Below are positions 23,473-61,912 of a stretch of 64,000 nucleotides of DNA, in pieces. This DNA is from Chiloscyllium plagiosum (taxonomy: Eukaryota): NCBI RefSeq assembly GCF_004010195.1, contig NC_057718.1, positions 64,591,123 through 64,655,122 on the forward strand, read 5' to 3'. The translations under genes and the position numbers were made by a program. Each line of letters starts with the position of its first letter. Positions within the stretch are counted from its first letter, which is position 1. A model generated the notes under the pieces. The model searched no databases. It was not told where the DNA came from and saw only the letters and a program-made list of their open reading frames with translations.

Positions 23473-23525
23473 ATGGAGAGTAAGGATCAAGATACCAATA
23501 AGGCAAAAAGACTGCATAGAAGCAG
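23473..23525 (+). CDS. chs1: Chitin synthase coding exon 1 (MESKDQDTNKAKRLHRS-R)
   Basis: ATG with G at -3 and +4. Donor AG|GTAAAA, phase 2, joins exon 2 in frame. Confidence 0.72.
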
Positions 23526-24111
23526 GTAAAACCTTTAAAAATTATCTTGTGGTATTAGTTTATTTCTAAAACTGTATCTATAAACAATTCTGTAAAATAT
23601 TTAAAATATTATTTGATATATAGATTATGTGATATTAAATATCAGTTTTTAGAACTAGTTTTGCAAATTAAGTGAATAGTTGAAAATCTTTGGACACATT
23701 GTGTGGAGGGGAAACATCTGTGCCTAACAATATCTCAGTAATCGAAATAATTTCAGAGCAGTATGAAAGGAATTCTTGTTCAAGGTAACAAGGTATTAAA
23801 CACGCAAAATTGGTCAAATGCTGATTAGTTTTCTTTACAAAGTCAATTAATTGCAAATCATTTTTTCAAGTTGAACGCTGCAGTTTTTGAGAATTTGTAA
23901 TTGATGTTGAAGTGCAAAGAAATTCAAAATTGTATTGTTCACCTGCATACCTGCTCTGTCTCAGTTTTATTCATCACCAATTAAGATATGTAAAAATCTG
24001 GGTAATTTTACCCAAAATAAAACTAATTGAATTTTATATATTTAAATGATTATTCTTCAAAGGCCAATATGCAGTAGGTGCTGCATTATATATTTCTTTG
24101 TTTAGTTTCAG

Positions 24112-24247
24112 GAAAACATGGGATCCGTTTATGTTGAAAATGGTAAATGACGAAGAAGAAGTCACGGGGAAATTTGTGTTACTCTTGCAATACGTAATCT
24201 GCTTCATTTTTGGAGTCTGTGTACTGGGGTTAATCTTTCTCAGCAAG
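24112..24247 (+). CDS. chs1: Chitin synthase exon 2 (KTWDPFMLK...LGLIFLSK)
   Basis: Acceptor tttcag, donor AAG|GTCAGT. WDPF N-terminal motif typical of metazoan chitin synthases, followed by a TM helix ending in SK. Confidence 0.9.
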
Positions 24248-24669
24248 GTCAGTACATCCTTAAAGAAACAGCATTGAACATTTAAATAAAACTCTTAAAG
24301 TTATTCAGCACCTTTTGTTATGTTCCAAATCAATTACTGTAAAATTAATAATAGCATTATAGTGTTCCTTTCAATAACTTTTCAGATTTCAGGATGCCCA
24401 GAGCATTTTCACTACTCATTAATTATTTTTTGAAAAACACAGCATAAAATAAATAGTCAGAAGACTTGTTTTGAGTAGTCATTGAGAGATAAATATTGTG
24501 CGGGTAACTAGGATACCTCAAATAGTGCCATGGAACATTTTACACCCACCTGAGATTACAGACAGGGGCTTCAAATTAATGTTTCATCCAAAAGAAATCA
24601 GCTCATGACAGTGCAGCACTCCGGTCTACTATCGATCTAGTTTTGTTCTTAAGCCTTTGAATTGGGATT

Positions 24670-24752
24670 TCTGAGGGGTATCTGGTAGTTTCTAACTGGC
24701 ATCTGGTACTTTCTGAGGGGTATCTAGTAACCTCTGAGGGGTATCTGGTACT
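24670..24752 (+). repeat. Short tandem repeats of tctgaggggtatctggta
   Basis: Three near-identical ~18-bp units. Confidence 0.8.
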
Positions 24753-24829
24753 TCAGAAGATGAGTGAGATCAGAAAGATTGTAATGTTTCATTACAACTA
24801 CATTAATAACATGAGGATATGTTTTGGGA

Positions 24830-25015
24830 TGCAGTGGAGGCTGGTACAATTGCAACATTTTAAAAGGCATCTGGATGGGTATATGAATACGAAGGGTTTG
24901 GAGGGATATGGGCCGGGTGCTGGCAGGTGGGACTACATTGGGTTGGGAATATCTGTTCAGCATGGACATGTTGGACTGAAGGGTCTGTTTCCATGTTGTA
25001 CATCTCTATGACTCT
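24830..25015 (+). mobile_element. CR1 3' end
   Basis: FKRHLDGYMN..GLEGYG and a ctatgact tail. Confidence 0.85.
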
Positions 25016-26111
25016 AAATGGCATTAGTATGAAGCAAAACATATTAATGGACCAGAATTTATTGTAAACAAAAATGGCAAAGTGAACTGGACTCTGCATC
25101 ACTCATGTACAAATTAAAGAGAAGCTTTATTTCAGTGCAAATGGAAAGTTTAGGTACAAAAGTCTAGAATCCATGTGACAGGTAGTAGACTGGAAGTTAT
25201 GTAGGATGGCAGGTGGATAAAATGAGTAAGTGGGTGAGCTGTAGGTGGTTTGAGGGGAGTCAAGTTTAGCTGTGAAGTCAAGTCAGGTGATGGAAGGTGG
25301 GAAAGGATCATCAGATTGGATTGAGTTGGGCTAGTCAGCTGGTGGGGGGAAGCTGATTAGTCAAGTTGGAAGTTAGTTGGTTGGTAGGAGGTGGGCAGGG
25401 CCAGATCGGGTGTATGGTAGAGTGATCAGGATAATGCAGTTGGTCATGGTAGTCAGGTTGGACTGAAGAGATAATCAGGATTTTGATGGATATTCAGGAG
25501 ATCTGGGGTTGTGGCCAGGTCATTGGGGCTATTGTCAGGTTGTGCCAAGTCAGAGTGGTAATCAGGTTTTTGGGGTCTACTTCATTTTGGACTGACAACA
25601 GAGCATGATGTGTTGAAGGGAAGGATTTACTGACAGGAAGTGTTCTCAGCTTCAGTCTTTGTTCCACCCAGTGACCTGGTGGTAGGAGATACCTGATGTA
25701 CAGATCAGCCAAGGGGAGAAGTGAAGTCTGTTGGGTCACCAGGCTACCCAAAATGCAGCTAGTGGTATAAGGAAAGGGCATATCTTGCTTTCTCCCAAAG
25801 ATACAACACTGCGATAGATTACTTCTTTGGATACTGTGCTCCTCATTTCTGGAAAAGCTGGGCTCAGAAGACCTCACAAAAAAGTTCAGAGCAGTGTCTG
25901 ACATGGAAAGGTTCAAGCAAAGCAATAACCCAATGATGATTGCTCACTTTCAAACTTTGATTAATTAATTCCAACCAGTGATAGGGTCATCACTTTTGCT
26001 GCTGTAAATGCTGTGACAAAATATCATGGAAAGAAGTCACTAATTTGTAGTTTTCTGACATTTTAGTGAGTGGTATTTGTGTTGAAGAATATGCACTTTT
26101 ATGTTTCACAG

Positions 26112-26291
26112 GCCAGTCTTCTGTTACTGATCAGTGCTTCAAACAGTGAATCACCTTTTGAGAACAAACCTTTCACTCACCTTGTCCTCGCTTGTGCATT
26201 AGTTGTACCTAATGTTCTGGCCTTGGCAAAGGCCTTATGGAAGGTATCATTTGGATCATCCGATGCTCCTTCACTTAATATTCTAGGAATG
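26112..26291 (+). CDS. chs1: Chitin synthase exon 3 (ASLLLLISA...LNILGM)
   Basis: Acceptor tttcacag, donor ATG|GTAAGA, 180 nt, phase 0-0, hydrophobic. Confidence 0.9.
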
Positions 26292-26369
26292 GTAAGATGT
26301 TTTTTAAAATTCAATTTAAGAGCTTTCAGGTTTTCTAGAAAAAGAAATTAAAGGAATAGAAGGGTATAT

Positions 26370-26820
26370 TTATAATTTCACTGGACTAGTAAACCAAAAC
26401 CCCAAGCTCATGCCTTGAGGACTTGGATTCAAATCATGGCAGATGGGGGAATTTGACTCTACAGAGGCCGGTATCCCATTACCAAGTCACCCTTTATTTA
26501 CATGTGGAGAGTCCTTAACGATCTAGCTTCCTCAGAGCCAGCTGACATACCTGCTCTTACAGCCTCAATGAGGGAACTCATATTCTATGAGGTCCACCTG
26601 GTTGACCTTGTTACAAAGAGTTGCTCAACTGATGATCAATAACTGTCGATTGTTGTAAAATGTATTTCAGAGAATGTAATCTGCCATCCTTGTCTGGACA
26701 GTATGTAACTGCAGACCCAAGGCAATGTAGTTAACTTTTATTTGCTTTCTGAGCAATTAGAGAAGAATGATAAAAGTTGGCTTAGCCAGCAACATCTATA
26801 TCTCATGTATAAATAAAAAA
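26370..26820 (+). mobile_element. Second tRNA-type SINE family, containing a possible solo-LTR fragment (~26458-26615)
   Basis: Similar to 27480-27800, 30590-30880, 40350-40690 and 49430-49640. Confidence 0.6.
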
Positions 26821-27479
26821 TACTTGGAGAGAAGCTAATGTTATGCTTGTGGCAGAATTTGGGGGTAGAACTGATGCAGCAATTGTTTTGCACAGTTTTG
26901 TTCATGCCTCTATGAAAACATCAGAAAAAAAATTAGACATTGTCTATATTCTGTCCATATTCAGCACATATCACTCAATGCAACTTTAAGTGCTTTAGTC
27001 ACTCGAAGAGCTTCTATATTTTCAAAAAATATATAATTTTAATGTCTCTTCAAGTTATGTAAATACTTTTGTGCCTTTCAATGATGAATTGACAAGGAAT
27101 TGACACAAACCAGGAGCTCTTAGGAAGTAATAAATATTGACAAACCTGATTATCTGAGAACAAATCTGCAAAATGTGGAAAGGGACAACTTTAACCTTAA
27201 TGCATTAAGTTCACTCATCTAAGTGTGCTCTTTTTGAAGGAGTAAATTAGTTGTCATTTTAGAATTTTTTTAGCTAACTTTACAAAGTTATTTCTCAAAA
27301 GACATTTAGGAAACAAGAAAACAGAAAAATAACATATTTTGAACATTTCATTTGTGATTTATTAAATATCACAAGTAGTTCTCATAACCTGGCCCCAATT
27401 TTTGTTCCCTGATTGAGCGCCGAGATGGGAGAGACCCTAGTTCCATGAACCTGACTTTTGAGTGTAGCTACCAGCCTTA

Positions 27480-27800
27480 TGGGGAGACAATGACCCAGTG
27501 CAATTACCACTTGACTGTCAATCCAGAGATCTAGGTTCTGAGGATCTGTGTTCAAATCATGCAGTGGTAGATGGTGGAAGTTGAATTAATTCATGAAACC
27601 ATTATTGGAGGAAAAACACATATGGTTCACTAATCTCCTTTAGAAAGGAAATTCCTGACTTATATGGTTGGCACATGTGTGACTCCAGACTGTCACCAAT
27701 GTGGTTGACTTCCAACTGCCCTCTGACCAATTGGAGATGGGCAATAAATACTGGCCAAGCCAACCATGCTGACATTATGTGAGAGAATAAAAAATAAGCT
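27480..27800 (+). mobile_element. Second SINE family copy
   Basis: gttcaaatc B-box-like motif and ggttcactaat...gtgactccagac...gggcaataaat. Confidence 0.7.
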
Positions 27801-28334
27801 AGAGTAGAAATTGGGGCTGACAATCCCAGAAGACCTGAAGAGGATGTTCAGTGAAAAAGCAAGAGAGGTGGAAAGCCTGATTTAAGGCCCTGTCACTGCG
27901 TATAAAACCTAAAAGAATAGTGCATAAAACATGTCTTCACCCCTCCTAACCACACACACACCCCACACACTCCCTCCATCTTTCTCTCTCTCACTCTCTC
28001 TCTTTCTCACTCTCTCTCTCACAACCACACACAAACGTTTCCCATTCCACATTCATTGTATATCAATTTTTACGGTCATATGCCAAACCATACTCATAAT
28101 CAACACCCTTTCCTTTTCACCTCTTGGGTTAAGTCACTTAGTATTCACCACAGAAGATCTCAGAACACATCCATAGGTGTGAGAAAAAAAAGGTCTATTT
28201 AGTGTGTGGCATTACAGATTTTAATATTGAGAAAAAAACCTCTTTAATTAAACACGTTTACTACATTTAAATTAGTTCACTTCAGTAAAGTCTTATAAAA
28301 CATTTCAAATTCATCATGCATTGAAATTCCTGCA

Positions 28335-28567
28335 TTCCCCATGGCCAAGTCAATTAATTTACACATCCCTGAACATTATAGACAATTTAGCATGGCTAAT
28401 TCACCCTAACCTGCATTTGGGATGGAAACTGGAGCACCTGGAGGAAACCCATGTGGACACAGGAAGAATGTGCAAACTCCACACAGACATTCATCTAAGG
28501 CTGGAATTGAACCCAGGCCTCTGTTGCTGTGAGGCAGCAGTGGTAACTATTGAGCCTCTGCCACCAA
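28335..28567 (-). mobile_element. HE1-type SINE
   Basis: gaggaaacccatg...tgtgcaaactccacacagac core. Confidence 0.85.
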
Positions 28568-29058
28568 CCCAGCACCTGATAATTTAAATGGCTAGCTGAC
28601 TCTATGAATTCATCATGCATAAATGTTCAGTTGAGTCTGTGAAATTGTGAAGTATCATGGTCAGAGCAGGATTTGAGATTTACTGGTATGTTTTGGAAAA
28701 AAAATTTAAGCCTCTGTATTTGGGTCTCACATTCTGCAAGAGAAAGTCAAACCAGCAGATGCATATATCATATGAAATTGTAGCTGGGTGCTATTTGACT
28801 GGCCACCGTTGTACACCTGATATTTAAATTCATTGACTTCAGTAATCTGAAAATTGTACCAAAGGAGCTACTTCAGCACTAACTGTAGACAACATTCAGA
28901 ACTTAACTATCACAACAAACTTAACTAATTGAGCATGAATGTAAATCCATGTTGGTCCAAAACCTTATTTCAATGATTAATCTTCTTTAAGTGTAATGCA
29001 ATATTATAATTTAACTTTGTGGATTTTCTTTCTGTCATCTCTCTAATTTTCTTTCCAG

Positions 29059-30095
29059 GTTTGTTTGATTGAAGCAGTTGTTGCTTTTGGCACTTCAATC
29101 TTGGTCCTGGTCTGCATGCCTCACTTTGACATTGTAACCAATTTGTATATTTTGAATGGTGTTTGCCTTCTTCCTGCTCTTCTGCAAGTAGTATTTCAGC
29201 TGAAACCACTCAAATCTTCTATGTTGCTTCCATTGGTAGGCTTTGGTTTTGTTTTCATGGGTCTCTTGCTTTTCATTTTAGCTCACAACCCACAGCAACA
29301 TTCAGAAGAGGTTAAACACATTAAACCGTACGTAGCCCTTGCAATAGTTGCCTTAATTTTCATATCTTTCAATTGGTGGGAAAATTTTACATCATACTGC
29401 AAATTTGGAATAATGGAAAATATAAGGGAAAACTTGCAATGTACCAGAAACATCACATATGTTTGTACTAGTACAGTGCGAATTCTAGTTATTGGTACTG
29501 TAGTGGCAGCTTGGATTCCAGTGAAGGAATATAAGTGGGAAGATGTAAAAACAGTCTCTCAATTCGATTTAAAAATTATTTTGTGCCTCTTTGGAATACA
29601 GGGGATTTCTTCTGCTCTTTGTCACTGGTTTGGGGTTCTGGTATGTAAAATGCATGCAGTCAGACGCAGCTTTGCTGTGCCTTCCGTATTAGCCACACCA
29701 ATTGTATTTTTTGCTTTTTTGATTGTGTTGTATGACAGCTTCAATAAATACGGCAAAGCAGATAGCTTTAACTTGACTGCCCTCTGCCACAATTTAAAAA
29801 CCTCCAACGATAGCGATTCTGTGCAAATCCTACTTTTAGAAATTCCTCGCAGCCTTTGCAGAGCAGAAGCGATATTAATTTCCAACAAAGTTGGCTTGGC
29901 ACTGCTTGGCTCCTTGGCTGTATGCTTTTGGCTAGGGCTGATTTTCTCCACATTCTACGTGTGGGGCCAGCACATTCAAAGGATTGAAAGGACATCCCAG
30001 CTGTTTGTCCGACGACTGTACGAGGCGGCCTTCATGGAACAGTCAATGCTGCTTAACACACGGGTCCAGAAAAAGAAAGAGAAGAAGGATAAAAG
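29059..30095 (+). CDS. chs1: Chitin synthase exon 4 (multi-TM N-terminal domain)
   Basis: 1037-nt open frame (ORF track 29065-30099) with many TM segments and the motifs FNWWENF, CKMHAVRRSFAVP, IERTSQLFVRRLYE. Acceptor ctttccag, donor AG|GTAAAA. Confidence 0.95.
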
Positions 30096-30589
30096 GTAAA
30101 ACCCTCATATATTTTCTTCCTGATGTTTTTATGGAAAGATATTTTTTCTCCAGAATTGTTTAGTACAACGAAGCTCATTTGGCTTCCCTGTTAACATTCT
30201 GTCGTTCTGCAGCATTTGTTTCTCTTTTTGAATGACAAAAATATGTGCCAAGTGGAGAAACAGACTTATTTCATTCACAGATTGTTGTTATCCTTTACCC
30301 TGAAGGAAATTTATTTGAGCAATTCACAGCTAAGTCTGCAGTCTGCAGATAATGCTTAAAGAGCACCGCAATGAATGACCAATTTCTCTGATTTTTGAAA
30401 TGACATTCTGTTTCTCAGCAGTACAACAAAATCAACATGGCCTGATTTACTTGGGACAGTAAGGTTGCCAACCATGTAGGACTGAGCATGCAGTCCCCAG
30501 GACACTGCCTTGCATGGCCTTGGAAATAAAAAGACATATGGACATGAAAGAAGATTTATTTTGACATTTTCTTTGAATTGTTGGAAAAT

Positions 30590-30880
30590 TGTTGGAAAAA
30601 CCCATCTGGTTGAGTAATGTCCTCAGGGAAGGAATCTGCTATCCTTACCTGACAAAGGGTCAGTTAGACTCGAAACGTCAGCTCTTTTCTCTCCTTACAG
30701 ATGCTGCCAGACCTGCTGAGATTTTCCAGCATTTTCTCTTTTGCTATTCTTACCTGCTTTGGTCTACATGTGACTGTAGATCCATAGCAATGTACTTGAC
30801 TCTTATCTGCCCTATGGGCAATTAGAGGTGGGTAATAAATACTGTTCTGGCCAGTGTTGCCCACATCCTATGAATTTAAA
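30590..30880 (+). mobile_element. Second SINE family copy with an inserted Penelope-like terminal repeat (~30649-30745)
   Basis: The insert is flanked by ctatccttacctg / ctattcttacctg. Confidence 0.7.
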
Positions 30881-31094
30881 AATGTCATATTCACTGACAA
30901 TTGCATAATGTTCAATTCTATCTGCCACTTTTCAGATACTAAAGCTGTCTCTGCATAAAACAAGATCTGGACAACATTTAGGTTTCAGCTGATATGTAAT
31001 GTTTACAAATAATATTTGTGCCTTGCAAGTGCCAGAGAATGACAACCCCAACAAGAGAGAATCTATTTGCCTGTGATGTTCAGATTTTTTTTTA

Positions 31095-31392
31095 GATTAG
31101 ATTCCTACTATGTGAAAACAGGCCCTTTGGCCCAACAAGTCCACAATGACCCTCTGAAGAGTAACTCACCCAGACCCATTTCCCTCTGACTAATGCACTA
31201 ACACTACATGCGATTTAGAATGGCCAATTAACCCGACCTGCACATCTTTGGACTGTTGGAGGAAACCAGAGCACCCAGAGCAGACATGGAGAAAAAGTGC
31301 AAACTCCACACAGTCGCCCAAGGCTGGAATCGAACCTGGGTCCCTGGTGCTGTGAGGCAGCAGCGCTAACCACTGAGCCTCCGTGCCACCCG
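31095..31392 (-). mobile_element. HE1-type SINE
   Basis: Full head (gggtggcacggaggctcagtggttagc on -) and (ttaga)n tail. Confidence 0.9.
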
Positions 31393-31404
31393 TATGTTCA
31401 GATG

Positions 31405-32180: not shown

Positions 32181-33037
32181 NNNNNNNNNNNNNNNNNNNN
32201 NNNNNNNNNNNNNNNNNNNNNNNNNNNNNNNNNNNNNNNNNNNNNNNNNNNNNNNNNNNNNNNNNNNNNNNNNNNNNNNNNNNNNNNNNNNNNNNNNNNN
32301 NNNNNNNNNNNNNNNNNNNNNNNNNNNNNNNNNNNNNNNNNNNNNNNNNNNNNNNNNNNNNNNNNNNNNNNNNNNNNNNNNNNNNNNNNNNNNNNNNNNN
32401 NNNNNNNNNNNNNNNNNNNNNNNNNNNNNNNNNNNNNNNNNNNNNNNNNNNNNNNNNNNNNNNNNNNNNNNNNNNNNNNNNNNNNNNNNNNNNNNNNNNN
32501 NNNNNNNNNNNNNNNNNNNNNNNNNNNNNNNNNNNNNNNNNNNNNNNNNNNNNNNNNNNNNNNNNNNNNNNNNNNNNNNNNNNNNNNNNNNNNNNNNNNN
32601 NNNNNNNNNNNNNNNNNNNNNNNNNNNNNNNNNNNNNNNNNNNNNNNNNNNNNNNNNNNNNNNNNNNNNNNNNNNNNNNNNNNNNNNNNNNNNNNNNNNN
32701 NNNNNNNNNNNNNNNNNNNNNNNNNNNNNNNNNNNNNNNNNNNNNNNNNNNNNNNNNNNNNNNNNNNNNNNNNNNNNNNNNNNNNNNNNNNNNNNNNNNN
32801 NNNNNNNNNNNNNNNNNNNNNNNNNNNNNNNNNNNNNNNNNNNNNNNNNNNNNNNNNNNNNNNNNNNNNNNNNNNNNNNNNNNNNNNNNNNNNNNNNNNN
32901 NNNNNNNNNNNNNNNNNNNNNNNNNNNNNNNNNNNNNNNNNNNNNNNNNNNNNNNNNNNNNNNNNNNNNNNNNNNNNNNNNNNNNNNNNNNNNNNNNNNN
33001 NNNNNNNNNNNNNNNNNNNNNNNNNNNNNNNNNNNNN
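32181..33037. other. Assembly gap
   Basis: Run of N. Confidence 1.
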
Positions 33038-34073: not shown

Positions 34074-34180
34074 NNNNNNNNNNNNNNNNNNNNNNNNNNN
34101 NNNNNNNNNNNNNNNNNNNNNNNNNNNNNNNNNNNNNNNNNNNNNNNNNNNNNNNNNNNNNNNNNNNNNNNNNNNNNNNN
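34074..34180. other. Assembly gap
   Basis: Run of N. Confidence 1.
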
Positions 34181-35275: not shown

Positions 35276-35365
35276 AAAATCGGACCATGTCATGATATAT
35301 CTGTGTGCAACAATGTGGCATGAAACAGTGGATGAAATGGCAAAGATCCTTACTTCAATATTCAG
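35276..35365 (+). CDS. chs1: Chitin synthase exon 5 (KSDHVMIYLCATMWHETVDEMAKILTSIF)
   Basis: CATMWHE signature. Acceptor aatag, donor AG|GTAAAT, phase 2-2. Confidence 0.95.
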
Positions 35366-39319: not shown

Positions 39320-39493
39320 GTTGGATAAATACAAACCAAACTCTTCAAAGTCACATAAAGATAATTTTGAGTTTGAAGCACACATTTACTTTGATGATGC
39401 TTTTCACCTCACTAATCCCAATGACAATGTACAGAAAAGAGTTTTGAATCAATATGTTAAAAACCTTGTTTGCATAATGGAAGACATTTACAG
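39320..39493 (+). CDS. chs1: Chitin synthase exon 6 (LDKYKP...EAHIYFDDAF...EDIY)
   Basis: HIYFDDAF motif. Acceptor atttttcag, donor AG|GTACTG, phase 2-2. Confidence 0.95.
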
Positions 39494-41322: not shown

Positions 41323-41503
41323 GATTTTCTCGCATGAAAAACAGAGTTTGAAGGATGAACAAGAAGATGATGACATAGTAAAGCAAACCATAATGGAGAC
41401 ACCTTATGGTGGAAGAATCACATATACTCTTCCATATGGAAACATACTTTATGTTCATTTGAAAGACAAGCAGAAAATTCGGCACAAGAAGAGATGGTCT
41501 CAA
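41323..41503 (+). CDS. chs1: Chitin synthase exon 7 (IFSHEK...ETPYGGR...KIRHKKRWSQ)
   Basis: TPYGGR and HLKDKxKIRHKKRWSQ motifs. Acceptor ttggcag, donor CAA|GTATGT. Confidence 0.95.
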
Positions 41504-49692: not shown

Positions 49693-50171
49693 TTCCACAC
49701 ACACAGTCACCCAAGGGTAGAATTGAACCCAAGTCCCTGATACTGTGAGATAATAGTGCTAACCACTGACACATCTTGCTGCCTAAGTTATAGCAATAAA
49801 TTATTTACCAATTCCCTTAAAGGTGCTTGAGATTAAAGTTGCCTTTTCCTGTTAATATACATATATAGTGAGGCTGTTTTGAAATTCCTGTTGAGGTTTC
49901 AGACACTAAAGAAGTTCTAAATCTGAAATCTAAGAAGATAATTGACACTCTTCAACATTGACTTGGTTGAGAATGGAAACCAAAATCTCCAAAGCAATAG
50001 AGGAACCTGAGACATATGTGTGAAGTGAGTGATGTTTCAAAGGCATGTGATTCAATTTTGGCACTTTAAATGAGTCAAATAGCAAAGCTACAGCAGTGAC
50101 GGGGGACAGTGCATGATTTGGCCCTGTGTTTGCTAGCATTTTTTATTTACACATTACATTCTTCTTTTCAG

Positions 50172-50273
50172 ATCATGTACATGTATTATCTGCTGGGATG
50201 GAAATTAAATAAAAAATACATGACCTTGTCAGGCAAATTTGAAGATGAAATATCTACTACAAATGCCTTAAAG
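50172..50273 (+). CDS. chs1: Chitin synthase exon 8 (IMYMYYLLGWKL...NALK)
   Basis: MYMYYLLG motif. Acceptor cttttcag, donor AAG|GTAAAT, phase 0-0. Confidence 0.95.
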
Positions 50274-51178
50274 GTAAATTATGGGGCTTCCTTTCTAATG
50301 TCTCAAAATAAGGATCTGTGATAACAGTTTATAAATTGTGTTCGGGATGAATTTTAAATCCAAACAATAGGCTTGAGTCAAGTGAAATATCTTAACTGTA
50401 AAAATTGCAAGCTTGATTCAAAAACATCTGCCGTTTCAGATTGGATAGAGACAGGAGAAGGAATAGGTTGCCTTTCTGCTTCCAGGAGGTGTTGGTAATG
50501 CAGCTGACAGCTATTAAACATTGGCCAGACAGGTTTCCCGGACCTCAGGAAGGCTGTCATTTCAGAGCATAGGTGATGACATTTTAAGAGAGGAGTACCA
50601 CAAGAGAAATATTTCTCTCTGCTCCCAAGCATACTTTCTCCCTGTGGACCCACTCCCTCACCAACTATCTCTGCACTTATCCCCAGACAAATTCCCTGAG
50701 TTGGGGATTGAATCCATCCAGGATCATATCACCTACTGTGATTAGCAGTCAGAACTCTCCTTGCCCCAAAGGTTGAACTTTCACTTTGGTTGCATCCCTC
50801 AGCTGAGGGTAGGAGTAGATTAAGAATACCCTCCAACTCCTCCCACCTACCCCCCACCCACCATGTTTCCAGTAGCAGTGAAATGTTTTGTATGTACCTA
50901 AGAAGGCTCTCCACCCAACTGGAAGCCACGCCTAATTCAAGTCGTCTTTTGATCAAGGATCCCTCTCATATGGAAAGGCAATTTTGTCTATCCTATCTGA
51001 ATCTCTACTTCCTGTATCCCCTGCCTAACAAACTTAACCCTGTCAGATATTTTAAATACAAAATAGTAAATATGTTATGTAAAAGACCAAGCTCTTGTAT
51101 GCTTCCATCATGCTTAGTAATTTTGAATCCTTCTATTCAAAATCTTAAGTTCACTTTTGTATTAATTATGCTTAAAAG

Positions 51179-51320
51179 ACAGAGAAGGAAAACACTTACA
51201 TTTTGGCTTTGGATGGGGACACTGATTTCCAGCCCTCAGCTTTGATCTTGTTAGTTGACAGACTGAGAAGATATCCAGATGTCGGGGCTGCATGTGGTAG
51301 AATACATCCAACTGGAACTG
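51179..51320 (+). CDS. chs1: Chitin synthase exon 9 (TEKENTYILALDGDTDFQP...AACGRIHPTGT)
   Basis: DxD motif LDGD and ACGRIHP. Donor G|GTATGA. The acceptor (cttaaaag) is weak, and an in-frame alternative lies 6 nt downstream. Confidence 0.92.
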
Positions 51321-51394
51321 GTATGAAGTTTTATCTCTCTCTACTCAACCTTATTTGATGTGTCTTTACATTTTTGCACTGTGTAAAGATTTAT

Positions 51395-51790
51395 AGAGAG
51401 TCATAGAGCTTTTATAGCATACCAAGAGACCCATCAGAGCATTGTGTCTAGACCAGTCATCAAGCATCTATCTACTGTGATCCATTTACCAGCACTTAGC
51501 CAGCAGCCTTGCCTGCCACATCATTTCAAGTGCTCACCTAAATGGTTCTTAAATGTCTCAAGGGTTCTTGCCTCTATCATCCTTTTATGTAGTGAGTTCC
51601 AGATAGCCACAACATGCTGGTTGAAAAGATTTTACCTCAAATCCCCTTTAATCCAACTGCTCCTTAAAACTGTGATCCTGGTTATTGACCCCTCTACTAA
51701 GCAGAAATACTTCTCCCTATCTCCCTGTCAATACCCCTCACCACTTTGTACACCTCAATCACATCCCCCTTAGCCTTCTCTACATCTCTC
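51395..51790 (-). mobile_element. CR1 3' fragment
   Basis: CR1 3' UTR and ctatgact tail on -. Confidence 0.7.
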
Positions 51791-53707
51791 CTGGACCTGG
51801 AAATTTATCCACTTCAAGCCTGCTAAAACTACTAATACGTACTTCCTCTTAATGCTATTTTGTTCAAGTAAATCACAACCACTTACTCACTATGGATAAA
51901 ACTCAGCTCTTAATAATCTTTGTAATGCTCACAAAGCCATCAAAAGAAAGCAATCATCCATTCAACTTCATTTTTAAAAAGTGCTGTTCTTTGGAGGTCA
52001 TAAAACTATTGTCTTTCAAACTCCATACAAAAAAAGCTAAAATAATTGTGAAGCTATCAAAATAAAGAAATAATTGAGAAAAAATGCTTCAAAAAGACAT
52101 AATCATATTAAATATTTATAAAACTGTCAATCAAACTGTTCATAGGCCCCTTGAAATCTTTTCAGTTAACCCCTGCTGAGCTAAATCAAAGAATTGGATT
52201 TGGAACTCAGCGAACCATTCATAATATTTTTCCATTGCACCATTCCATATTCAAAACCCTCAGAGATAACTAAAGCATAGCTTTCACAATTATCTGAACA
52301 GGCATCTAACATAGAATTTCAATCGGTGAAGCCAGAAAACTATTCAATTTTTCAAAGACATAACAGATGTCTGGACTTCAAATCAAAGTATAAATGAAAG
52401 CATGGATTCAATGTGACATATGAATATCTGTTTCTGAACACTGTTGAATGCATAAGTATCTTTAGAAAATCTGCTATAACCTATAAATACTTCCACAATG
52501 CTGGCCATTCAATAGTCATAATCGTTTAAGAACAGAGCTTTATGATCAATCAGTGGATTAAAAACATATTTATTGTGCAGACTCATAGCAGTTGAAGTTA
52601 GCAACACTTTGCAACACTTTAAATACATAGATGCCCCAAAGATCATGAAGCAAGGATTCTTTAGTCCACTATCATCCGATCTTTACAAACATGAAGGAAA
52701 ATTAATGTCTTGGAAAACAAAGTATTTACATGGAAATAAACCTACATTTCATATCTGATTGAGAAATCCTTTGCCTGTCTCTCCCTTTTTCCATGAAGCC
52801 TCTCGATGGAGGAAAGGATGTAAGTGTCAGAAAGAGGCCTTATGACATTTGAAATTAGCAACACATTTTAAATGTATTTGTCAAAAGGTTCCTGACTCAA
52901 TATTAGGCTTCTCCCAAGGTTCAAGGGCTGACTGAACTGATGTGATTCACATAGGCGTCAAGATACCATCCACCCCACTGAAACTCTCAAACTTAGGAAA
53001 ATGCAACATTGAGACAGACACTTAAAAAACATTGACCACAATGTTATCTCGAGTGCATGTCCGCAGGCAGATGGTGATTTCCTGGTGATAATTTACTGAC
53101 AGAGACAAATTAAGAGACCACCACTAGAATGCCATCCAACTGAGAATGGCAACCACTATCACAGAGTTGCTAGTCCAATCGGAGAGTTGGCAGTCTGTCC
53201 ATTAAGACAGTAGAATGGAGAAGAGGATGCCTCTATCTTTTGCTTGAAGGCAAGGTAGAATTTCTTTTAATGTGCCAGTACTAGACGTGCAGAGACCAGT
53301 GTTTGGAGAGGTAACCTCTCTAACTGGCATCATTGGATCAATGGTGGGTGGCCATTGGGGAATCCTCAAGGGACTATACAGCAGACATTGACAAAGCCCT
53401 CTTGGAAACCTATTGGGGTTCACAGTTTCACTTTAGCAAGTGCCTCCAGTTGGTGATTGGCTGTTATCACTGTCGTTCCTTCCAAAGAACATACAGAAAG
53501 ATGTAAACCTCCTCTACTTCAAGTTTGAAGTCTCCTGCCCTGAGCTGGTAGATTTTAGCCCAGCATTACCATTGTTTGTCAATGGTTGATGAAAGAAGCG
53601 GATTTAATCAACCAAATGTCCTTTTCTTACTCCATACTTTCTCATGTAAAATCATCTGTTTTTGAATCTCTCAACAAATCTATGCATAACAGTAAAATGT
53701 ACATGTC

Positions 53708-53710
<3 letters not shown>

Positions 53711-53766
<56 letters not shown>
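53711..53766. repeat. Compound microsatellite (CT)15(AT)13
   Basis: Seen directly. Ends 19 nt before exon 10. Confidence 0.97.
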
Positions 53767-53785
53767 CTTCACCCACCCCTAACAG

Positions 53786-53986
53786 GTCCTATGGTTTGGT
53801 ACCAGAAGTTTGAATACGCTGTTGGCCACTGGCTACAGAAGACAGCTGAACATGTGCTAGGCTGTGTCCTGTGTAGTCCAGGATGTTTCAGTTTGTACAG
53901 GGCAGCAGCCCTAATGGATGATAATGTTGTGAAAAAATATACTACCAAAGCGACAGCAGGGCAGCATTTTGTCCAGTATGATCAAG
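53786..53986 (+). CDS. chs1: Chitin synthase exon 10 (PMVWYQKFEYAVGHWLQKTAEH...QYDQ)
   Basis: QKFEY and GCVLCSPGCFSLYR motifs. Acceptor ctaacag, donor G|GTAAAC, phase 1-1. Confidence 0.97.
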
Positions 53987-54084
53987 GTAAACCTAATGCA
54001 TGTTACTGATGCCTGCTTTTACATGAGTTAGAATTTCTACATACTAGATTCACTTGAAATCTTTGTTTATCAAACATCTGACAA

Positions 54085-54535
54085 TGTAAGCTTTGAACAT
54101 ATTCAATGACCCAGCTTCCACTGCTTTCTGTGGAAGGGAATTCCCAAAAGCAGACAATCTCTGAGGGAGAACTCACCTCCTTTTCATCTTAAATGGGAGA
54201 GGCCAATCTTAAGTAGAGAAGGCCTTATTTTTAAATAGTACTCCCTAGTTCTAGATTCCCCATTAGAGAAATATTGTTTCAGTGTCTACCTTTTTCAGAT
54301 TCTTCAGAGTCTCTGATGTTTCAATTTGACCTCCACTCATTTTTTTCAAATCTAATGAGTACAAGCCCAAACTGCTCAACCTTTCCTCATAAGATTAATC
54401 CTCAGAACAGTGCTCAGTCAAGAGAACATTCTCTCAACTGCTCCAGCGTAAGAATATTCTTCCTCCAGTATGGAGATCAAAGTTGTGTAGAATGCTCTGC
54501 TGCGGTTTTACTGATGCCCTGTGCAATTGTAGCAG
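54085..54535 (-). mobile_element. Old CR1 3' fragment
   Basis: YEERLSSLGLYSL remnant on -. Confidence 0.6.
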
Positions 54536-54743
54536 ATTGAATGTAAAATTAAGTTCTGTTACAATCACCCTTAATTTATACAATTAGTTTACCCATACAT
54601 TAATCAATGAGTGCATGAATTATCCTGAAGACAGACCTAATTCTTGCACGAGAGATTTTAACATTTTTGGATGTTTAAATGATTGATATTAGCATAATGG
54701 GCTGGAAGCCACCTTTAACAGGTACACTTATCACCTCCACCAG

Positions 54744-55028
54744 GAGAAGACCGTTGGCTGTGTACATTATTACTTCAGCAGGGGTGGCGTGTAGAATACA
54801 ACGCAGCTTCAGATGCCTATACAAATGCACCACAGGAGTTCAAAGAGTTCTACAATCAACGACGCCGTTGGGTACCTTCAACTTTGGCAAATACAATTGA
54901 TCTTTTAAACAGTGGAGCACAAACATCCAAGAGAAACCACTCAATTTCAAAACTCTACATTCTGTATCAGATTGTTGGAACTGCAGCATCAATTCTAGGT
55001 CCTGCCACTGTGGTTTTAATGATTGCAG
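54744..55028 (+). CDS. chs1: Chitin synthase exon 11 (catalytic GEDRW and QRRRW)
   Basis: EDR at 54746-54754 and QRRRW at 54857-54871. Acceptor ccaccag, donor G|GTGACT. Confidence 0.97.
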
Positions 55029-57147
55029 GTGACTATGCGTTTCTACTTTATTGTGAATTTTTTTTTGCTTTAACTTGGGATAACATACTGTAACCATAGG
55101 TCTTATTTCATTTCTGCAACATTATCATAAAAATGTGTCAGTGCCACAGATGCATTAGTGATTGTATTTTGCTGCATACTGATGAAATGGCACAGACTTT
55201 TTTTTTGCCTCCATGACTAAAGTACAGATTGCTGCATCAACATGAAGGTTATGCTAACACACAGTCATCCCCTAGTGTACCCTGTCAGGATCTACATAAA
55301 CAATTATAAGCTATTTTAGATACCAGTCAGGCCATTGTATTCAGCTATTGAAGTTGCATCATGACAGTTTCTCATACTGTTTTACAGTCTCATAGTAAGA
55401 TGTATGCCCCGAAATTGTCCACCATTCAGAATCATGCAAACCATTAGATTTATTTAAGAAAATTATTTGGCAAGCCTTGTTACAGTCTCCTCCATACAAT
55501 AGAGAGTGAATTCAACAATTCTGCTTGCAGCTAGAGATATTATTTGTTGGGAATGCAGATTATTGACAAACCTGCAGCACTGATTCTGCAGCCCTTTTCT
55601 TAACAAGAGATGTTCTCAACTAGTAATGTAGGATAGCTGAATATTTTCAGTATAACAGAAATTGAATATTGCTATGAAAAAAAAAGTGCTTGTTAAAGCT
55701 TTTCATATTACACTCATCAGAGCAGATTGAGAAGAATGCCAAATTTCCAAAGGAGCAACAATTTATATTGCATGAGAAAAAGCTGATTGTTTGGCAAATG
55801 AACTCTGGTTGGTTGAGGTGCTGCCATAGAAAATGTTGTCCCGCAAGTGTTTGTTAGTTGAAACAAGCTGCAATAATCACACAAGCTTTTTTTTAGTTTA
55901 CAGCGGACAGGACCTGCATGTGAACAGTAGTAGCTTCCATTGAATCCCATTGTGAAACTCATTGATAATCTTGAATTGATTGTTAATGTAATTCTTAGCA
56001 CACTCAGGATTGTTAAGTAATGCTGCCCTTTTGCAGAATCACATCTAATGTTGGTTTTAGTTTTACAAGCATGACCTGAGTGGGGACTGTCCATACTCTA
56101 CCTATTGCAAACAATCAACAAGATGTATTATTTGATATAACCTACCAGTCATCGGGACATATGACCTACATACATTGGCACCATATTGTCACTTATTACA
56201 AAAATTACCGAATATACTATGCGATGTGTTGATTCACTTCAGACTGAAACACAAAATAGTGTTATTTGCATCTTTTCTCATCAAAACCTTTCATTTTCAT
56301 CAAACAAACAAAATACGTTTACAAAAACCAAATACTAAGTCAATAATTCCACTCTCATGCCATGTTATGTATCGTGATATCGTTCTATCAGCACATTATG
56401 ATGTGACCTTCTGAAGGCAACAGCTGATACGCATTGCTAAAGCAATGTGAACCATTTATAACAGAAAGAAGTTTCACCGTACAGCAGCTAGAACAGAAAA
56501 TAATCCCAAATGCATTTGCAGAGAAGAGGAGAAAATGAGCATCAAGCAGCAGAAAAGTCAAGGATGGTCATCAAATATATGAGACAGAAATATTCTTAGA
56601 ATTCCTCCCACTTTGCTATCTCAACTTCTTTGGAGGTGCAGTGAAATAGTTGTTTATTTTGAAATTATGGTGATTGAGCAGGAGCAATTTTGAACATATG
56701 CTTGATTGTGGTCTATCAAGTAGGTCTTGAAGAGGTTATTGTTGTATAGTTCCTGATAGTCCTAATGAATTATGCTTAGCAAGTGAAAGCAAAGTGTACC
56801 TATTGCTATCATGCAATAAATTACCTTGTTATGTAAGGCAAGTGCCTCTTTGTTTACTTTCATCAGTGGTCTGTCCTCTACCACTGGTAATTAGACAGTC
56901 TCTGGACTCAGCATGGAAAAAGGAAAACTGGTGACAGGGAACCACTCAAACCAGAATATGACAGTCATGTGTTACGATGAAAAAATATAAATGCCTCCAA
57001 ATATGTTTTCTTAAATATTGATTAATTTTAATTATATATAAGGTTATTGACAGAAAACTTATAGGATAATTTTGTTTTATCCAATCTTAATAATACAAAG
57101 TTCTTCTTAATTCAAGATGGTGACTTTTTGTATACAACAATTTACAG

Positions 57148-57327
57148 GAGCATTTACCTTTGTGTTTAACTGGAATGGAAACGTTGCTCTAGCTCTTGGA
57201 GTTGTGCCTCCTGCCATCTACATACTGATCTGTTACAAAGTCAAGTCAGATACCCAGATCATAATTGCTGCTGTGATGAGCATCTTTTATGCTTTTCTAA
57301 TGATTGCAACAATAATGTCTATTATTG
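57148..57327 (+). CDS. chs1: Chitin synthase exon 12 (TM helices, AFTFVFNW...IMSII)
   Basis: 180 nt, phase 1-1. Acceptor tttacag, donor G|GTGAGT. Hydrophobic. Confidence 0.94.
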
Positions 57328-57939
57328 GTGAGTGTTTCATGACCTACGTTTTGGCAAATAAAATGACATTTACAAGAGTTAATTGTATTGATGCAAACCT
57401 TTGAAATTAATCATCTTAAAACATTGTAATATTGATTTCCTTTTATATTAATTAATCATTGGCAATATGAATTACCAATTTAAAGATACAGAGTGACATT
57501 CAAAGCATTTTTCCCTTGTCAGATTAGAAAATGAAATGTAATGTAAAAATGCAATGCACAGTATTGAAGAACAAAGAAACAGAGAGAGGTCACTGAGCCC
57601 TTGAAAATATTCCAACATTCAGTTAGATCATGGCTAATATCAAAATATTTTGCATCTTAACTGTATTCAGTTCTCTTGGTCCCACATTCTTGTGATTTAT
57701 TAATAGTGGTCCAAATATCTTTTTTCCTCTTCTGAGCAATTAAGTAGTTTTTGGACCATCGTAAATCAACAACCTATTAAGAGCCTTACTTTTTTGTGCA
57801 TTACCACCTATTTTATTTATTATATAGACCCACTTTCAAGTTTATAACAGAAACTCCCAATGGAAGGTTTAGTCCAATTAGGTTGATTCCCAGGAATTTT
57901 ACACTTTGAATTTCATCTAAGGAGTTAAAATTATAGTTA

Positions 57940-58210
57940 GATATAGCTTACATACAGTGTGGAGACAGGCTCTTTGGCCCAACAAGTCCACACTGACCCA
58001 CCGAAGCGCAACCCACCCAGACCCATTCCCCTACATTTACCCCTTCAGCTAACACTATGGGCTAATTCACCTAACCTGCATATTTTTGGTCTGTGGGAGG
58101 AAACCCACGCAGACACAGGGAGAATGTGCAAACTCCACACAGTCAGTCACCTGAGGCAGGTCTCTGGTGCTGTGAGGCAGCAGTGCTAACCACTGTGCCA
58201 CCATGCTGCC
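57940..58210 (-). mobile_element. HE1-type SINE
   Basis: Conserved core and head. Confidence 0.9.
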
Positions 58211-59339
58211 CATATTTAGTAACCTTAATAAGTTACTGTCTCATTACAGAACAACTGAAGGCAATTTATATATAAATATATGTATGTACATATTTATGTT
58301 AGAACACAAACTCATATACAAAAAGAGTACTTTTATTCAGCAAAATTAAAATAGTCAACTTTATTGCATGAAATGAAGCAGCAGCATTAAAATGGATGCT
58401 GTAGGAAAGGCTCCAGCAATGGAGTTATGGCTGCTGAAAACCTGGTTTTTGTGCTGTTCTCAGAATTATATTACAGCTGAGCTGTCGAGGAATCAATTTT
58501 AGTGTTTAAATGTGCCAGCTGGTCCCATTTCCATTTGGCTGTTAAACTTTACAGACGTCTCTGATGTTCATGTACATCTACTTAGCATCCTTTTGTACTT
58601 TCCAGTCGGGGTCACGTGCAGTGGCTGGAATAACCACAAAAAAGTTTGAATGTAGTTCTTTAGCCATTGTTCAGGGACAAAAGGATTAATGCTCTTTTGT
58701 GTTCCAGTATTGCACTTATTTTTAAATGTTATTTGAATGTAGGGAAGAGGATAATGTTCACATATAATCCAAACATGAATGCTAATAATAAATCAGAGAT
58801 TTCCGATATTTGTCTTTCTTTTAATTTCATGGGCCAAATCTTCTGGTCTTTGGACTGCTGCAGGACAGGTGTTTGGCTGAGTTGTGCATTGGTCCCTGTA
58901 GAAGTTTTATTATGTTGCAGTCTGGGAGAATTGTTTGGGGAATTTCAGCTTTGAATGGGCATTTACTTTGCCCCATGATATCCGTGCAACTGTTTCTGAT
59001 TCTGAACTGGAGACAGAGATTTTGGGCTGTTCTAATATGCTTATCTGGATAGCCATCCGGAAAATATAAGACAAATTAAAACGTAATCTAACTCCTGGTT
59101 AACTGCACAATTTGCTTTAATATTCACCATTACCACTAGAGTAAGTTCTCTCAATGAGGCTACCCCCACAAATCCAACTTGACCTGAATATACCCTCCTC
59201 GAGAAATCCCCAAACCCTGACTACCTCTCAAACCTGACTACCTTCCTGTCATGACCCGACCTTCTGGACCTATCCTGGCTAACTCCTTAAACTTCCAATG
59301 ACACCAGATAACTAGATGAGATTGTGGAGTACTTTGAAA

Positions 59340-60170
59340 TGTAGGGCTGAGTCAGCTCAACTTTGTCAAGGGGAGCAAAAACAGAAGTGGTTGGAAAAGC
59401 TCAGGAAGTCCGGCAGCATCTGTGAATAGAAATCAGGGTTAATGTTTTGGGTCCGGTGACCCATCCTCAAAGGAAGGGTCATCAGACCAGAAACATTCAC
59501 CCTGATTTCTCTGTGCAGATGCGGCTAGACCTGCTGAGCTTTTCCAGGAACTTTTGTTTTTGTTTCTGATTTACAGCATCTGCAGACCTGTCAGTTTTAT
59601 CAAGGGGAGGTCGTGCTTGACAAATCTGTTAGAATTCTTTGAGGAGGTAATGAGCAAGTTAAACAAATGTAAAGAAAGTATTTAGCATACTTACCCTCAT
59701 TGCTCAGACCTTTGAGTATAGGAGTTGGGATCTAATGTTGACGTTGTACAGGATGTTGGTGAGGCCTTTTCAGGAGTACTGTGTCTAATTCTGGTCTCCC
59801 TGTTATAGGAAGGATATTATTAAGCTGGAGAGGGTTCAGAAGAGATTTACCAGGGTGTTGCTGGGAATGGACGGTTTGAATTATAAGAAGAGACTGGATA
59901 AGCTGGGACCTTTTTCACTGGAGTGTAGGCGGTTGAGAGGTGACCTTTTAGAGGTTTATGAAATAATGAGGGGGATAGATAAAGTGAATGATAAGCGACT
60001 ACAGTCACTATGTTTAAAAAACATTTACGTAAGTACACGAATAAGAAATATTTGAAGGGATATGGGCCAAGCACAGGCAGTTGGGAATAATTTAGTTTGG
60101 GATTATGGTCAGCATGAACTGTTTGGCCTTCACAGTCTATTTCCGTGCTCTATAACTCTATGACTCTACA
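59340..60170 (+). mobile_element. CR1 fragments containing a palindromic Penelope-like insert (~59375-59598)
   Basis: RRLRGDLLEVY. The insert is flanked by tcaagggg on both sides and has inverted arms. Confidence 0.8.
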
Positions 60171-60719
60171 TATCCTCCAAACATTCAAACCACCAGGAAT
60201 GCAGTTTTTGTGCTAATACCATTTTTAAAATGTGTTGACAATTACCTACGCTCTGCTATCTTCCTATGTCTTTATTTGAGGGTGTAACCATATAGGTATT
60301 TAGTTACCAGACCAATGGGTGTGACCGTTAAAATTATTATCGTAAATGTCAAGGGACCTTTCAATTAAGAAGAACAAAGTATTCACTATATTTAGAAAGG
60401 AGACTGTGCAGGTGTCAATGCAGCAAGGGCACCATTGAATGACAAAGATAAAATCTTGGGGAAGACATTAAACTCACATGAGCCCATTTCATGTTTGCAA
60501 ATATATTTGTAATTTTAAAAATTGTTAGTGTTAGGAGAGAGGCTAAGACTTCAAAAAAGGTACAGCACAGAAATTGTCTGGGGTCTTGCAGATGACATGC
60601 TTCATGTGCAGAGCCAGAATGAGCTGAGGGTTTCTGTTTCGACCATCAAACTGCGCAGTGAATTCTAGACACCCACTACCCTTGAAGAAAAAAGATTTTT
60701 TCATGTTCCCTCAAATTCT

Positions 60720-61130
60720 TCTACCTCCTTTAGGCCACTCTAACCCCTCCCTCCATCCACTCTCCCTATTGTCCTCTGCTCCCTCTCTCACAGTTCACTC
60801 TCCCTCTCCCCCATCTAGTTTATCCCACGCTCATTCACTTCACCCCTCCCCATTCATTCAATTCCCTCCTCTGTTCAGTCAACACCCCCACTCTCCTCTC
60901 CCCTTTGATTCTTTCCCTTCCCTACTTCTCTATATCCCTTCCCCATCCTGTTCCCCTTCTACCTCTCCACTTTCACCTTTCACCTCATAAATTCCTCCTC
61001 CACACTTTTTCACATCCCCATTCTTTTTTCCCGACACCATGCTCCATTCTAACTATTCCCCCTCTTGACTCTACCCCTTTCCCATTTTACTTCGCCGCCC
61101 CACTGCCCCTTCTCCGTTGACCTCCTATCC
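60720..61130. repeat. Pyrimidine-rich low-complexity tract
   Basis: Strongly C/T-biased + strand. Confidence 0.8.
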
Positions 61131-61560
61131 TCTAGCAGCTGCTACACAAACAGTTTCAATTCACCTTTGACACGTTTTGTTAAAAGCTGAGCTATAAGTG
61201 GACAAATGGTGCATCGCCCTAAAACAGCATTAGAACGTTAAACATGCAAAGAGGGAACCCACATTAATTGTTGGACTCTGATTGACAAATTCAAGTATAA
61301 AATGAGTGAAACAAGGCCACAGCAGTGATTCCTGAACTAAACAAGGGCCTTCATGTGAAAGTAAAGTCATTCCTATTCACACTTACATGATACTTGGAGG
61401 TGGATTTGTCATAGGCTCTTTCAAATTTTTAATCAACTTGTTATGGTCCCACTCTGTGGTCATTATATCCTAAGGTGGGACCTGACCCGGCCCTCCAGGG
61501 AGCATGCTACAAGACTCAGAGCTTTTTGCATTGATGCTAACATTATGTTATCTTTTTTAG

Positions 61561-61912
61561 GTGAAATGTTGAAAGAAAACACCTTTATTACTCCAACAGG
61601 CTTATTCTTCATCTCGATGATGATCCTTTACTTCTCAACAGCAATGCTGCATCCCCAAGAATTCCCTCTTGTATTTTACGGATTGTTGTACATCATCTGT
61701 ATCCCCAGTGGATACTTGTTGCTGCCAATTTACTCCATGGTAAACATGAATAATGTTTCATGGGGCACACGTGAAACAGTTACTCCAAAAATACAGGACA
61801 AAAATAAAACTAAGCAGGTTCTGCGATATGAAAAGAAATGCAAATGCATCTGTTGGGATATTGAATTTTTAGTCAAAGAGGATAAAAAGGAATTAATTCA
61901 CCATGCAGACAG
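61561..61912 (+). CDS. chs1: Chitin synthase exon 13 (LHPQEF...NNVSWGTRE...HAD)
   Basis: LHPQE motif and WGTRE at 61761-61775. Acceptor ttttttag, donor AG|GTAAGT. No stop codon, so the gene continues. Confidence 0.96.

Follow-up and report, generated by a model that had tools for sequence, protein, structure and literature searches.

A complete type II chitin synthase gene and a decayed tandem copy in the genome of the bamboo shark Chiloscyllium plagiosum

The stretch of DNA analyzed here, referred to as the window, comprises 64,000 nucleotides (nt) of the genome of the bamboo shark Chiloscyllium plagiosum (G000:C9:64591123-64655122) and contains the greater part of a chitin synthase (CHS) gene. 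We consider it very likely that this gene of 19 exons is an intact and spliced chitin synthase gene of type II, the only complete copy found in the genome. Its product probably acts as a membrane enzyme, polymerizing UDP-N-acetylglucosamine (UDP-GlcNAc) into chitin that is extruded from the cell. The gene is already annotated under a chitin synthase name, and a member of the family has been studied in a skate. Because of this annotation, the intact orthologues found in 13 cartilaginous-fish clusters (sharks, rays, and chimaera), and the published localization of the skate gene, we rate the interest of the intact gene as low; the new finding at the locus is a decayed tandem copy.

The first-pass annotation of the window had described 13 exons between 23473 and 61912 that splice into an open frame of about 1,037 codons. 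This part stands: tblastn with shark proteins returned 13 exon blocks between these positions which, with exact splice sites, add up to 3,113 nt (1,037.7 codons) without a stop, and both ends coincide. The gene does not end at 61912, however, as six additional exons follow past the window end (G000:C9:64656176-64665614), with sizes that include 44 nt, 65 nt, and, for the last one, 21 nt; the 44-nt exon 14 was overlooked by tblastn and recovered by a local scan. The complete gene has 19 coding exons encoding 1,217 amino acids (aa), a single terminal stop, and GT-AG boundaries at 18 of 18 introns (Table 1), and no disabling change was found in the downstream exons. Residues 25 to 1217 are identical (1,193/1,193 aa) to the RefSeq protein XP_043552707.1, "chitin synthase chs-2-like" of C. 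plagiosum, which also backs the C-terminal exons 14 to 19. In the RefSeq model, translation begins only at Met25 and exon 1 is missing; the 24 residues gained from exon 1 and the beginning of exon 2 are common to other sharks' proteins. The exon 1 peptide, which has no aligned-read coverage, matches the N termini of the Cetorhinus, Heptranchias, and Pristiophorus proteins at 68 to 82%. All six motifs named in the first-pass annotation were located on the plus strand and in the expected order (CATMWHE at 35304, LDGD at 51209, QKFEY at 53803, GEDRW at 54743, QRRRW at 54857, and WGTRE at 61761), with the G codon of GEDRW interrupted by intron 10. Its remark that the list of open reading frames (ORFs) misses two of these places also holds, since the start-codon ORF of exon 11 opens only at 54884, past GEDRW and QRRRW, and the CATMWHE exon yields an ORF of just 25 aa.

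Runs of N occupy 13178-13677, 32181-33037, and 34074-34180 of the window, two of them within intron 4, and no exon was lost across them, as judged from identity with XP_043552707.1 and the homologues. The acceptor of exon 9 (51169-51178) has a purine-rich end; a spliced contig from sequencing run X2 uses the predicted site, and the zebra-shark database model has extra sequence at the same joint. The surroundings are repeat-rich, as had been described. Multi-copy repeats, assessed within 424 kb, make up 37% of the window and overlap with 0 of the 18 exons tested, and the nonexonic part holds many reverse-transcriptase fragments of long interspersed nuclear elements (LINEs) as well as short repeats.

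Both the chitin synthase identity and the shark origin proposed earlier are borne out by comparison with other proteins. XP_043552707.1 matches the Pfam family Chitin_synth_2 (PF03142) with 120.3 bits against a cut-off of 27 (E 1.2e-34), a value at which the match is not due to chance. The signature motifs, as defined in the review PMC12653383, are present (DxD at aa 663, QxxEY at 705, EDR at 766, QRRRW at 804, and (S)WG at 987), and hydrophobic segments lie on both sides of the catalytic domain, seven in the N-terminal part and six after aa 849. Pfam detected neither a SAM nor a myosin domain in XP_043552707.1 or in nine vertebrate homologues. Flanking membrane segments on both sides together with the lack of SAM domain and myosin head are the features that define metazoan type II chitin synthases, the type to which the vertebrate enzymes were assigned by Zakrzewski et al. 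in 2014 (PMC3942024). A distinction of vertebrate CHS types by SAM domains was considered and dropped, given that none of the 10 full-length proteins has one and that PMC3942024 assigns the vertebrate genes to type II. Identity of the protein amounts to 98% with Chiloscyllium punctatum, 91% with whale shark, 90% with zebra shark, 74.5% with little skate (XP_055495972.1, 1,218 aa), 68% with elephant shark, and 51 to 56% with the seven bony-fish, lungfish, and axolotl proteins compared. A protein search with exon 4, in which 8,000 candidates were scored and 292 matched, had cartilaginous-fish proteins in the first 13 places of the best 120 (61 to 92% identity), 12 of these 13 carrying the name chitin synthase in their source; the remainder of the 120 belonged to bony fishes, lungfish, and amphibians, with four nameless proteins and no amniote among the named ones.

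Among solved structures, a sequence search of the Protein Data Bank (PDB) gave seven matches, six of them chitin synthases (E 7.5e-17 to 5.2e-10) and one a hyaluronan synthase (HAS; E 2.1e-5); the matched region takes in the catalytic part and the C-terminal membrane part but leaves out the N-terminal multi-helix domain. A structure model of the whale-shark orthologue likewise retrieved chitin synthases ahead of hyaluronan synthases (E 3.9e-10 to 7.5e-7 in the 18 listed rows versus 4.5e-4). The model has a C-terminal helical bundle, in which a channel may be surmised, and we take its match to chitin synthases as supporting, not decisive. Could the gene nevertheless encode a hyaluronan synthase, or another enzyme of glycosyltransferase family 2 (GT2) that merely resembles CHS? 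The weak HAS matches in sequence (E 2e-5) and fold (E 4.5e-4) speak for it, but HAS-like loci exist elsewhere in the genome, where they score 30.6 bits with Chitin_synth_2 as opposed to 120 for the chitin synthase protein, and the intact-looking one carries GDDRH/QQTRW, a motif spelling typical of HAS, rather than GEDRW/QRRRW. Moreover, a length of 1,217 aa and two membrane domains fit a type II CHS, as against about 550 to 600 aa for HAS, so that we give this explanation practically no credence. The HAS-like loci were the other Chitin_synth_2 matches in the genome, from a search with a stricter first pass: an exon with a frame open over 310 aa (G000:C4:97779547-97779897) and a match containing a stop, which could mark the edge of an exon or else belong to a broken gene (C35:3077322-3077543).

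Phylogenetic trees place the gene within the vertebrate CHS, in a cartilaginous-fish clade of "chs-2-like" proteins (eight rows, support 100/100; 12 rows, 99/100, in a 45-row tree), as sister to the whale-shark gene (100/100) and on a short terminal branch (0.033); PMC3942024 assigns these vertebrate enzymes to type II. A separate clade (100/100) is formed by the long chs1 proteins, and the bamboo shark gene lies outside it. The trees are unrooted, contain no invertebrate or jawless sequences, and do not resolve the branching order of the five vertebrate CHS groups; we claim no order of events from them. Two proteins (P0002 and P0004) were excluded from the alignment and the trees because their database models appear to contain sequence that is extra or stems from repeats. 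Several orthologue models seem faulty at their ends (P0001, P0002, P0125, and P0126): the N terminus of the zebra-shark model is a piece of LINE reverse transcriptase, two other models have spurious N termini, and the whale-shark model has its last exon in a different frame and lacks exons 1 to 3. Genome searches with exons 4, 10, and 11 each gave one real match, and exon 9 gave two, the second of which carries a stop; the locus is the only complete chitin synthase copy found in the genome. The small-spotted catshark has two annotated chitin synthases (P0007 and P0128), located on sequences of equal length, that are 93% identical, a recent duplication unlike the old one at the bamboo shark locus.

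The gene is intact, spliced, and under strong conservation. As a stand-in for the ratio of nonsynonymous to synonymous substitution rates, we counted departures from consensus in an alignment of 118 homologues (the 120 listed minus the two faulty models), considering the 320 columns with a conservation of 95% or more. The bamboo shark protein departs at two of these (Y736 and T1189), both changes being present in other cartilaginous fishes as well, and 11 other cartilaginous-fish proteins depart at one to nine of the same columns. Spliced transcripts, which had been suggested as a check, were sought in four sequencing runs aligned to window positions 50000-58000. Intron-free contigs from three of the four (three studies, two organism labels) contain the junctions 8-9, 9-10, 10-11, and 11-12: one 937-nt contig of run X8 spans exons 9 to 12, run X2 has one contig over exons 8 to 10 plus the 11-12 joint, and run X1 has the joints 10-11 and 11-12. 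Three of the exon joints are listed in the contigs at GT..AG, and the two exonic differences are both synonymous. A processed retrocopy is an unlikely source of these contigs because exons 4, 10, and 11 match this locus only.

Several observations weigh against a working gene for chitin production. Close to the active site, the protein has an alanine (A756) where all 11 other aligned cartilaginous-fish proteins and both close relatives have glutamate. Run X12 (raw single-cell polyA RNA, about 2% of it read) did not cover the exons; the tissue of the runs is unstated, two are merely guessed to be RNA and one is unlabeled, and the contig evidence covers the junctions from exon 8 to exon 12. The structure model is that of an orthologue, with a mean predicted local distance difference test (pLDDT) score of 67.5, values below 50 in the catalytic loops (581-617 and 630-679), and template-modeling (TM) scores of about 0.3. 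No activity assay for this protein or any shark CHS was found in the literature searched. The X-ray diffraction of the ampullary material was atypical (Phillips et al., 10.1101/687301). Nakashima et al. warn that chitin-binding probes lack full specificity (PMC6109156), and the equation of the skate gene LeCHS with XP_055495972.1 is an assumption. The column of A756 is itself variable across fishes (E in 53, R in 45, and K in 12 of 118). One might suppose that the gene was silenced recently and that its frame has simply not had time to decay, seeing that a neighbor of the same family died, so that loss does occur at the locus, and that A756 is specific to the lineage. Spliced contigs in three studies, the change of only two of 320 conserved columns, the short end branch, and intact orthologues across sharks, rays, and chimaera make this very improbable.

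A functional enzyme for endogenous chitin, as proposed in the first-pass annotation, would work along the following lines, with motif roles taken from the solved fungal and oomycete enzymes by alignment to yeast Chs1 (via the basking-shark orthologue) and from a cryo-electron microscopy review (PMC12653383). UDP-GlcNAc and a metal ion would be bound in a pocket formed in part by TMWHE, DDAF, and DGDT, which probably correspond to motifs 1, 2, and 4 of that review. D768 of GEDRW would serve as the general base, QKFEY and QRRRW would line the entrance of the channel, with W808 of QRRRW holding the growing chain, and CSPG would be the gate loop that the chain passes. The six C-terminal hydrophobic helices may form the exit channel through which the chitin chain is pushed out of the cell, and the seven N-terminal helices may constitute an animal-type accessory domain. 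The best fold matches are yeast Chs1 (7XS6 and 8K3P), Candida Chs2 (7STL), and Phytophthora Chs1 (7WJM); with the basking-shark orthologue, QxFEY, the PG of the gate loop, EDR, QRRRW, and SWG align to these residue for residue. Identity over the fold alignment is 13 to 17%.

In skate, LeCHS transcripts were found in cells of the ampullary canal, where they overlap with chitinase-sensitive staining (Phillips et al., 10.1101/687301 and Curr Biol 2020; a fuller account of chondrichthyan CHS genes was announced in the preprint for elsewhere). Chitin has been proposed as the scaffold of the globules of the ampullary gel (PMC8379299). This ampullary expression was shown in skate; by extension, the epithelium that lines the canals of the ampullae of Lorenzini would be a main site of the bamboo shark enzyme, the chitin scaffolding the conductive gel. 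The main text of a catshark sensory-organ paper does not contain the word chitin. Tilapia, hagfish, lancelet, and Ciona are reported to have chitin membranes in the gut, and CHS is expressed in the gut of tilapia and Ciona (PMC6109156, which nowhere uses the words "shark" and "cartilaginous"); salmon chs1 is gut specific (PMC10234404). Gut expression of the bamboo shark gene is possible as well. With regard to the product, the enzyme could be active and yet make short or modified chito-oligomers or a protein-tied glycan instead of crystalline chitin fibers. This would agree with the nature of the ampullary material, a hydrogel whose diffraction is unlike that of invertebrate chitin (10.1101/687301), with the resemblance of its globules to chitosan nanoparticles (PMC8379299), and with the lack of a solved animal CHS among the PDB matches. 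However, none of the channel and gate motifs of processive synthases is missing from the bamboo shark protein, and the extracted gel was reportedly characterized by Fourier-transform infrared spectra, nanowhisker-like crystals, and its glucosamine content (10.1101/687301). We therefore consider such a product distinctly unlikely and retain chitin as the probable one.

The gene can be compared with two forms of vertebrate CHS. The short "chs-2-like" enzymes of ray-finned fishes, lungfish, and amphibians (about 1,200 to 1,290 aa) have the same architecture and 51 to 56% identity, and they have 93 to 118 residues from WGTRE to the C-terminal helices, similar to the 93 of the bamboo shark. In ray-finned fishes, the long chs1 (about 1,415 aa, 52 to 54% identity) has all catalytic motifs in common with the bamboo shark gene but differs from it by an insert of about 170 acidic and helical residues that follows WGTRE (264 to 277 residues up to the helices in four chs1 proteins) and by a 3-residue deletion in exon 8, neither of which is found in the bamboo shark gene. 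Salmon chs1a/b (PMC10234404) and tilapia Om-CHS1 (PMC6109156) were assigned to the long clade by name only. Short and long genes have consecutive locus tags in arapaima, three consecutive tags (long, short, and partial short) are found in eel, and in gar a short and a long gene occur on sequences of one length. Since the long chs1 clade includes proteins of both gar and bowfin, and a short protein is present in gar as well (P0023, P0055, P0060, and P0138), the short/long split would, on the sequences compared, predate the teleost genome duplication. The gar pair does not fit the account in PMC10234404, in which gar is single-copy and two subclades arise from the teleost duplication, provided that these subclades equal the short and long groups.

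Downstream of the intact gene, on the same strand and beginning 45,851 bases past its stop codon, lies a second, decayed chitin synthase. It consists of nine exon remnants in gene order at 60 to 80% DNA identity, several with matching splice edges, which together contain about 370 readable codons with two stops and at least six frameshifts. Of the 134 conserved columns that could be compared, 36 are altered. For exons 1 to 4, 10, 11, 14, 15, and 18, scores in this stretch were at or near those of shuffled controls (three shuffles each), and the catalytic exons look deleted rather than hidden in gaps because the stretch has no N. The decayed copy is an unprocessed pseudogene and an old tandem duplicate. 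Two weak pairs of inverted repeats around the inverted exon 9 (28 to 38 nt, 71 to 75%) were not convincing as its boundaries. A candidate for a third remnant, some 120 kb beyond the gene (hidden Markov model E 0.04), was rejected, as its DNA score of 38 lies below the shuffled range of about 55. Neither the 240 kb that precede the window nor the remaining part of the 300 kb downstream contained a further CHS remnant. We found no paper on the number of CHS genes in sharks or on a CHS pseudogene, subscription journals lying largely outside the search.

The decayed copy may be the dead partner of the teleost gut chs1, a question that the tree does not settle. This reading is attractive because short and long genes lie together in gar, eel, and arapaima. 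In its full form, early jawed vertebrates had a tandem CHS pair of which ray-finned fishes kept both members, whereas the shark line lost the gut-chs1 lineage, was left with a single enzyme, the one associated with the electrosensory gel, and its gut chitin barrier may have been lost or rerouted independently of mammals. We put this forward tentatively and regard it as rather unlikely. The alternative, toward which we lean slightly, is that the decayed neighbor stems from an early duplication within cartilaginous fishes (or from an unplaced third lineage) and is not the partner of the bony-fish chs1. Approximately unbiased (AU) tests on 23 rows reject the copy as sister to the window gene (P = 0.035) and allow it with the elasmobranchs (0.12), all cartilaginous fishes (0.24), the short ray-finned type (0.27), or the long chs1 (0.50). 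Holding it with the long chs1 costs no likelihood (+0.04 relative to the free tree) versus a cost of 4.85 with the cartilaginous fishes, a result that favors the partner of chs1, as does its distance from the intact neighbor (46%), to which it is no closer than to axolotl (46%), gar (48%), or bowfin chs1 (45%). Identity to the 40 best-scoring homologues is 43 to 50%, and to the nearest vertebrate relatives 45 to 50%; in the 45-row tree the branch of the copy is long and falls in none of the starred groups, and a quick tree places it with amphibians (89, unstarred). The diagnostic letters give a mixed picture: the copy has five of 27 cartilaginous-fish letters, three of 13 amphibian letters, and six of 35 chs1 letters. 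The alternative is favored by the five cartilaginous-fish letters, by the out-group letter at 11 of the 35 chs1 columns, and by the absence of the 3-residue deletion that the long chs1 has in exon 8; in addition, no remnant of the approximately 170-residue chs1 insert was found in its stretch. Finally, the 93% pair of the catshark indicates that CHS duplicates do arise in sharks. Protein searches for an intact orthologue gave weak evidence either way: with the exon 6 remnant, none of nine candidates scored, and with the exon 9 remnant, three of nine did, at 66 to 68% (catfish, blenny, and one nameless protein). No second cartilaginous-fish CHS lineage appeared among the named matches of the best 120 of 292.

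Little else was identified around the locus. Exons of a p90 ribosomal S6 kinase gene, presumably RPS6KA2, lie on the minus strand about 190 to 270 kb past the chitin synthase gene (L027:8669-8980 and L035:5954-6283; PDB E 2e-26). As for synteny markers, MPC and Got1/Sft2 matches were not near the locus, and no upstream gene was identified. About 180 to 185 kb upstream of the window, on the minus strand, broken frames resemble, by eye, RNase H, integrase, and envelope of an endogenous retrovirus-like element. A link to the major histocompatibility complex, suggested by salmon papers, was set aside; PMC1971071 describes it as a salmon-specific insertion, and the only neighbor identified here is the p90 S6 kinase.

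Table 1. Exons of the bamboo shark chitin synthase gene and position of the decayed copy. Coordinates without a prefix are window positions; the others are genome positions.
Feature	Coordinates	Strand	Content
Exon 1	23473..23525	+	ATG start, aa 1-18; not in RefSeq model (starts Met25); in-frame stop a few codons upstream
Exon 2	24112..24247	+	First hydrophobic helix
Exon 3	26112..26291	+	tblastn block and splice sites
Exon 4	29059..30095	+	1,037 nt; bulk of N-terminal membrane domain, five of its seven hydrophobic segments
Exon 5	35276..35365	+	CATMWHE motif; start of GT2 domain
Exon 6	39320..39493	+	DDAF
Exon 7	41323..41503	+	KRWSQ at its end
Exon 8	50172..50273	+	Joint 8-9 in run X2
Exon 9	51179..51320	+	LDGD (DxD) motif; joint to exon 10 in X2 and X8 contigs
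Exon 10	53786..53986	+	QKFEY and CSPG (putative gate-loop equivalent); joint 10-11 in X8 and X1
Exon 11	54744..55028	+	GEDRW (predicted catalytic base D768) and QRRRW; joint 11-12 in X8, X1, and X2; one genome match
Exon 12	57148..57327	+	Putative channel helices
Exon 13	61561..61912	+	Helices and SWGTRE motif
Intron 13	61913..64000	+	Continues beyond the window
Exons 14-16	G000:C9 64656176-64656219, 64658158-64658222, 64659826-64659936	+	Outside the window
Exons 17-19	G000:C9 64660504-64660721, 64663541-64663622, 64665594-64665614	+	Outside the window; the last holds the stop
Decayed copy	G000:C9:64711465-64755847	+	Remnants of exons 5, 6, 7, 8, 9 (inverted), 12, 13, 16, and 17

In summary, the intact gene extends a known list by one shark, and the start of the database model is corrected by one exon. 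It is of modest importance because no animal chitin synthase structure was among the PDB matches, the literature searched held no activity assay of a shark enzyme, and a genome with one intact copy offers a clean test case, as any chitin of the bamboo shark should derive from this gene. If the decayed copy is the partner of chs1, the short/long split would predate the parting of sharks and bony fishes, and the locus would directly help to establish at what time, and how many times, gut chitin was abandoned by vertebrates.

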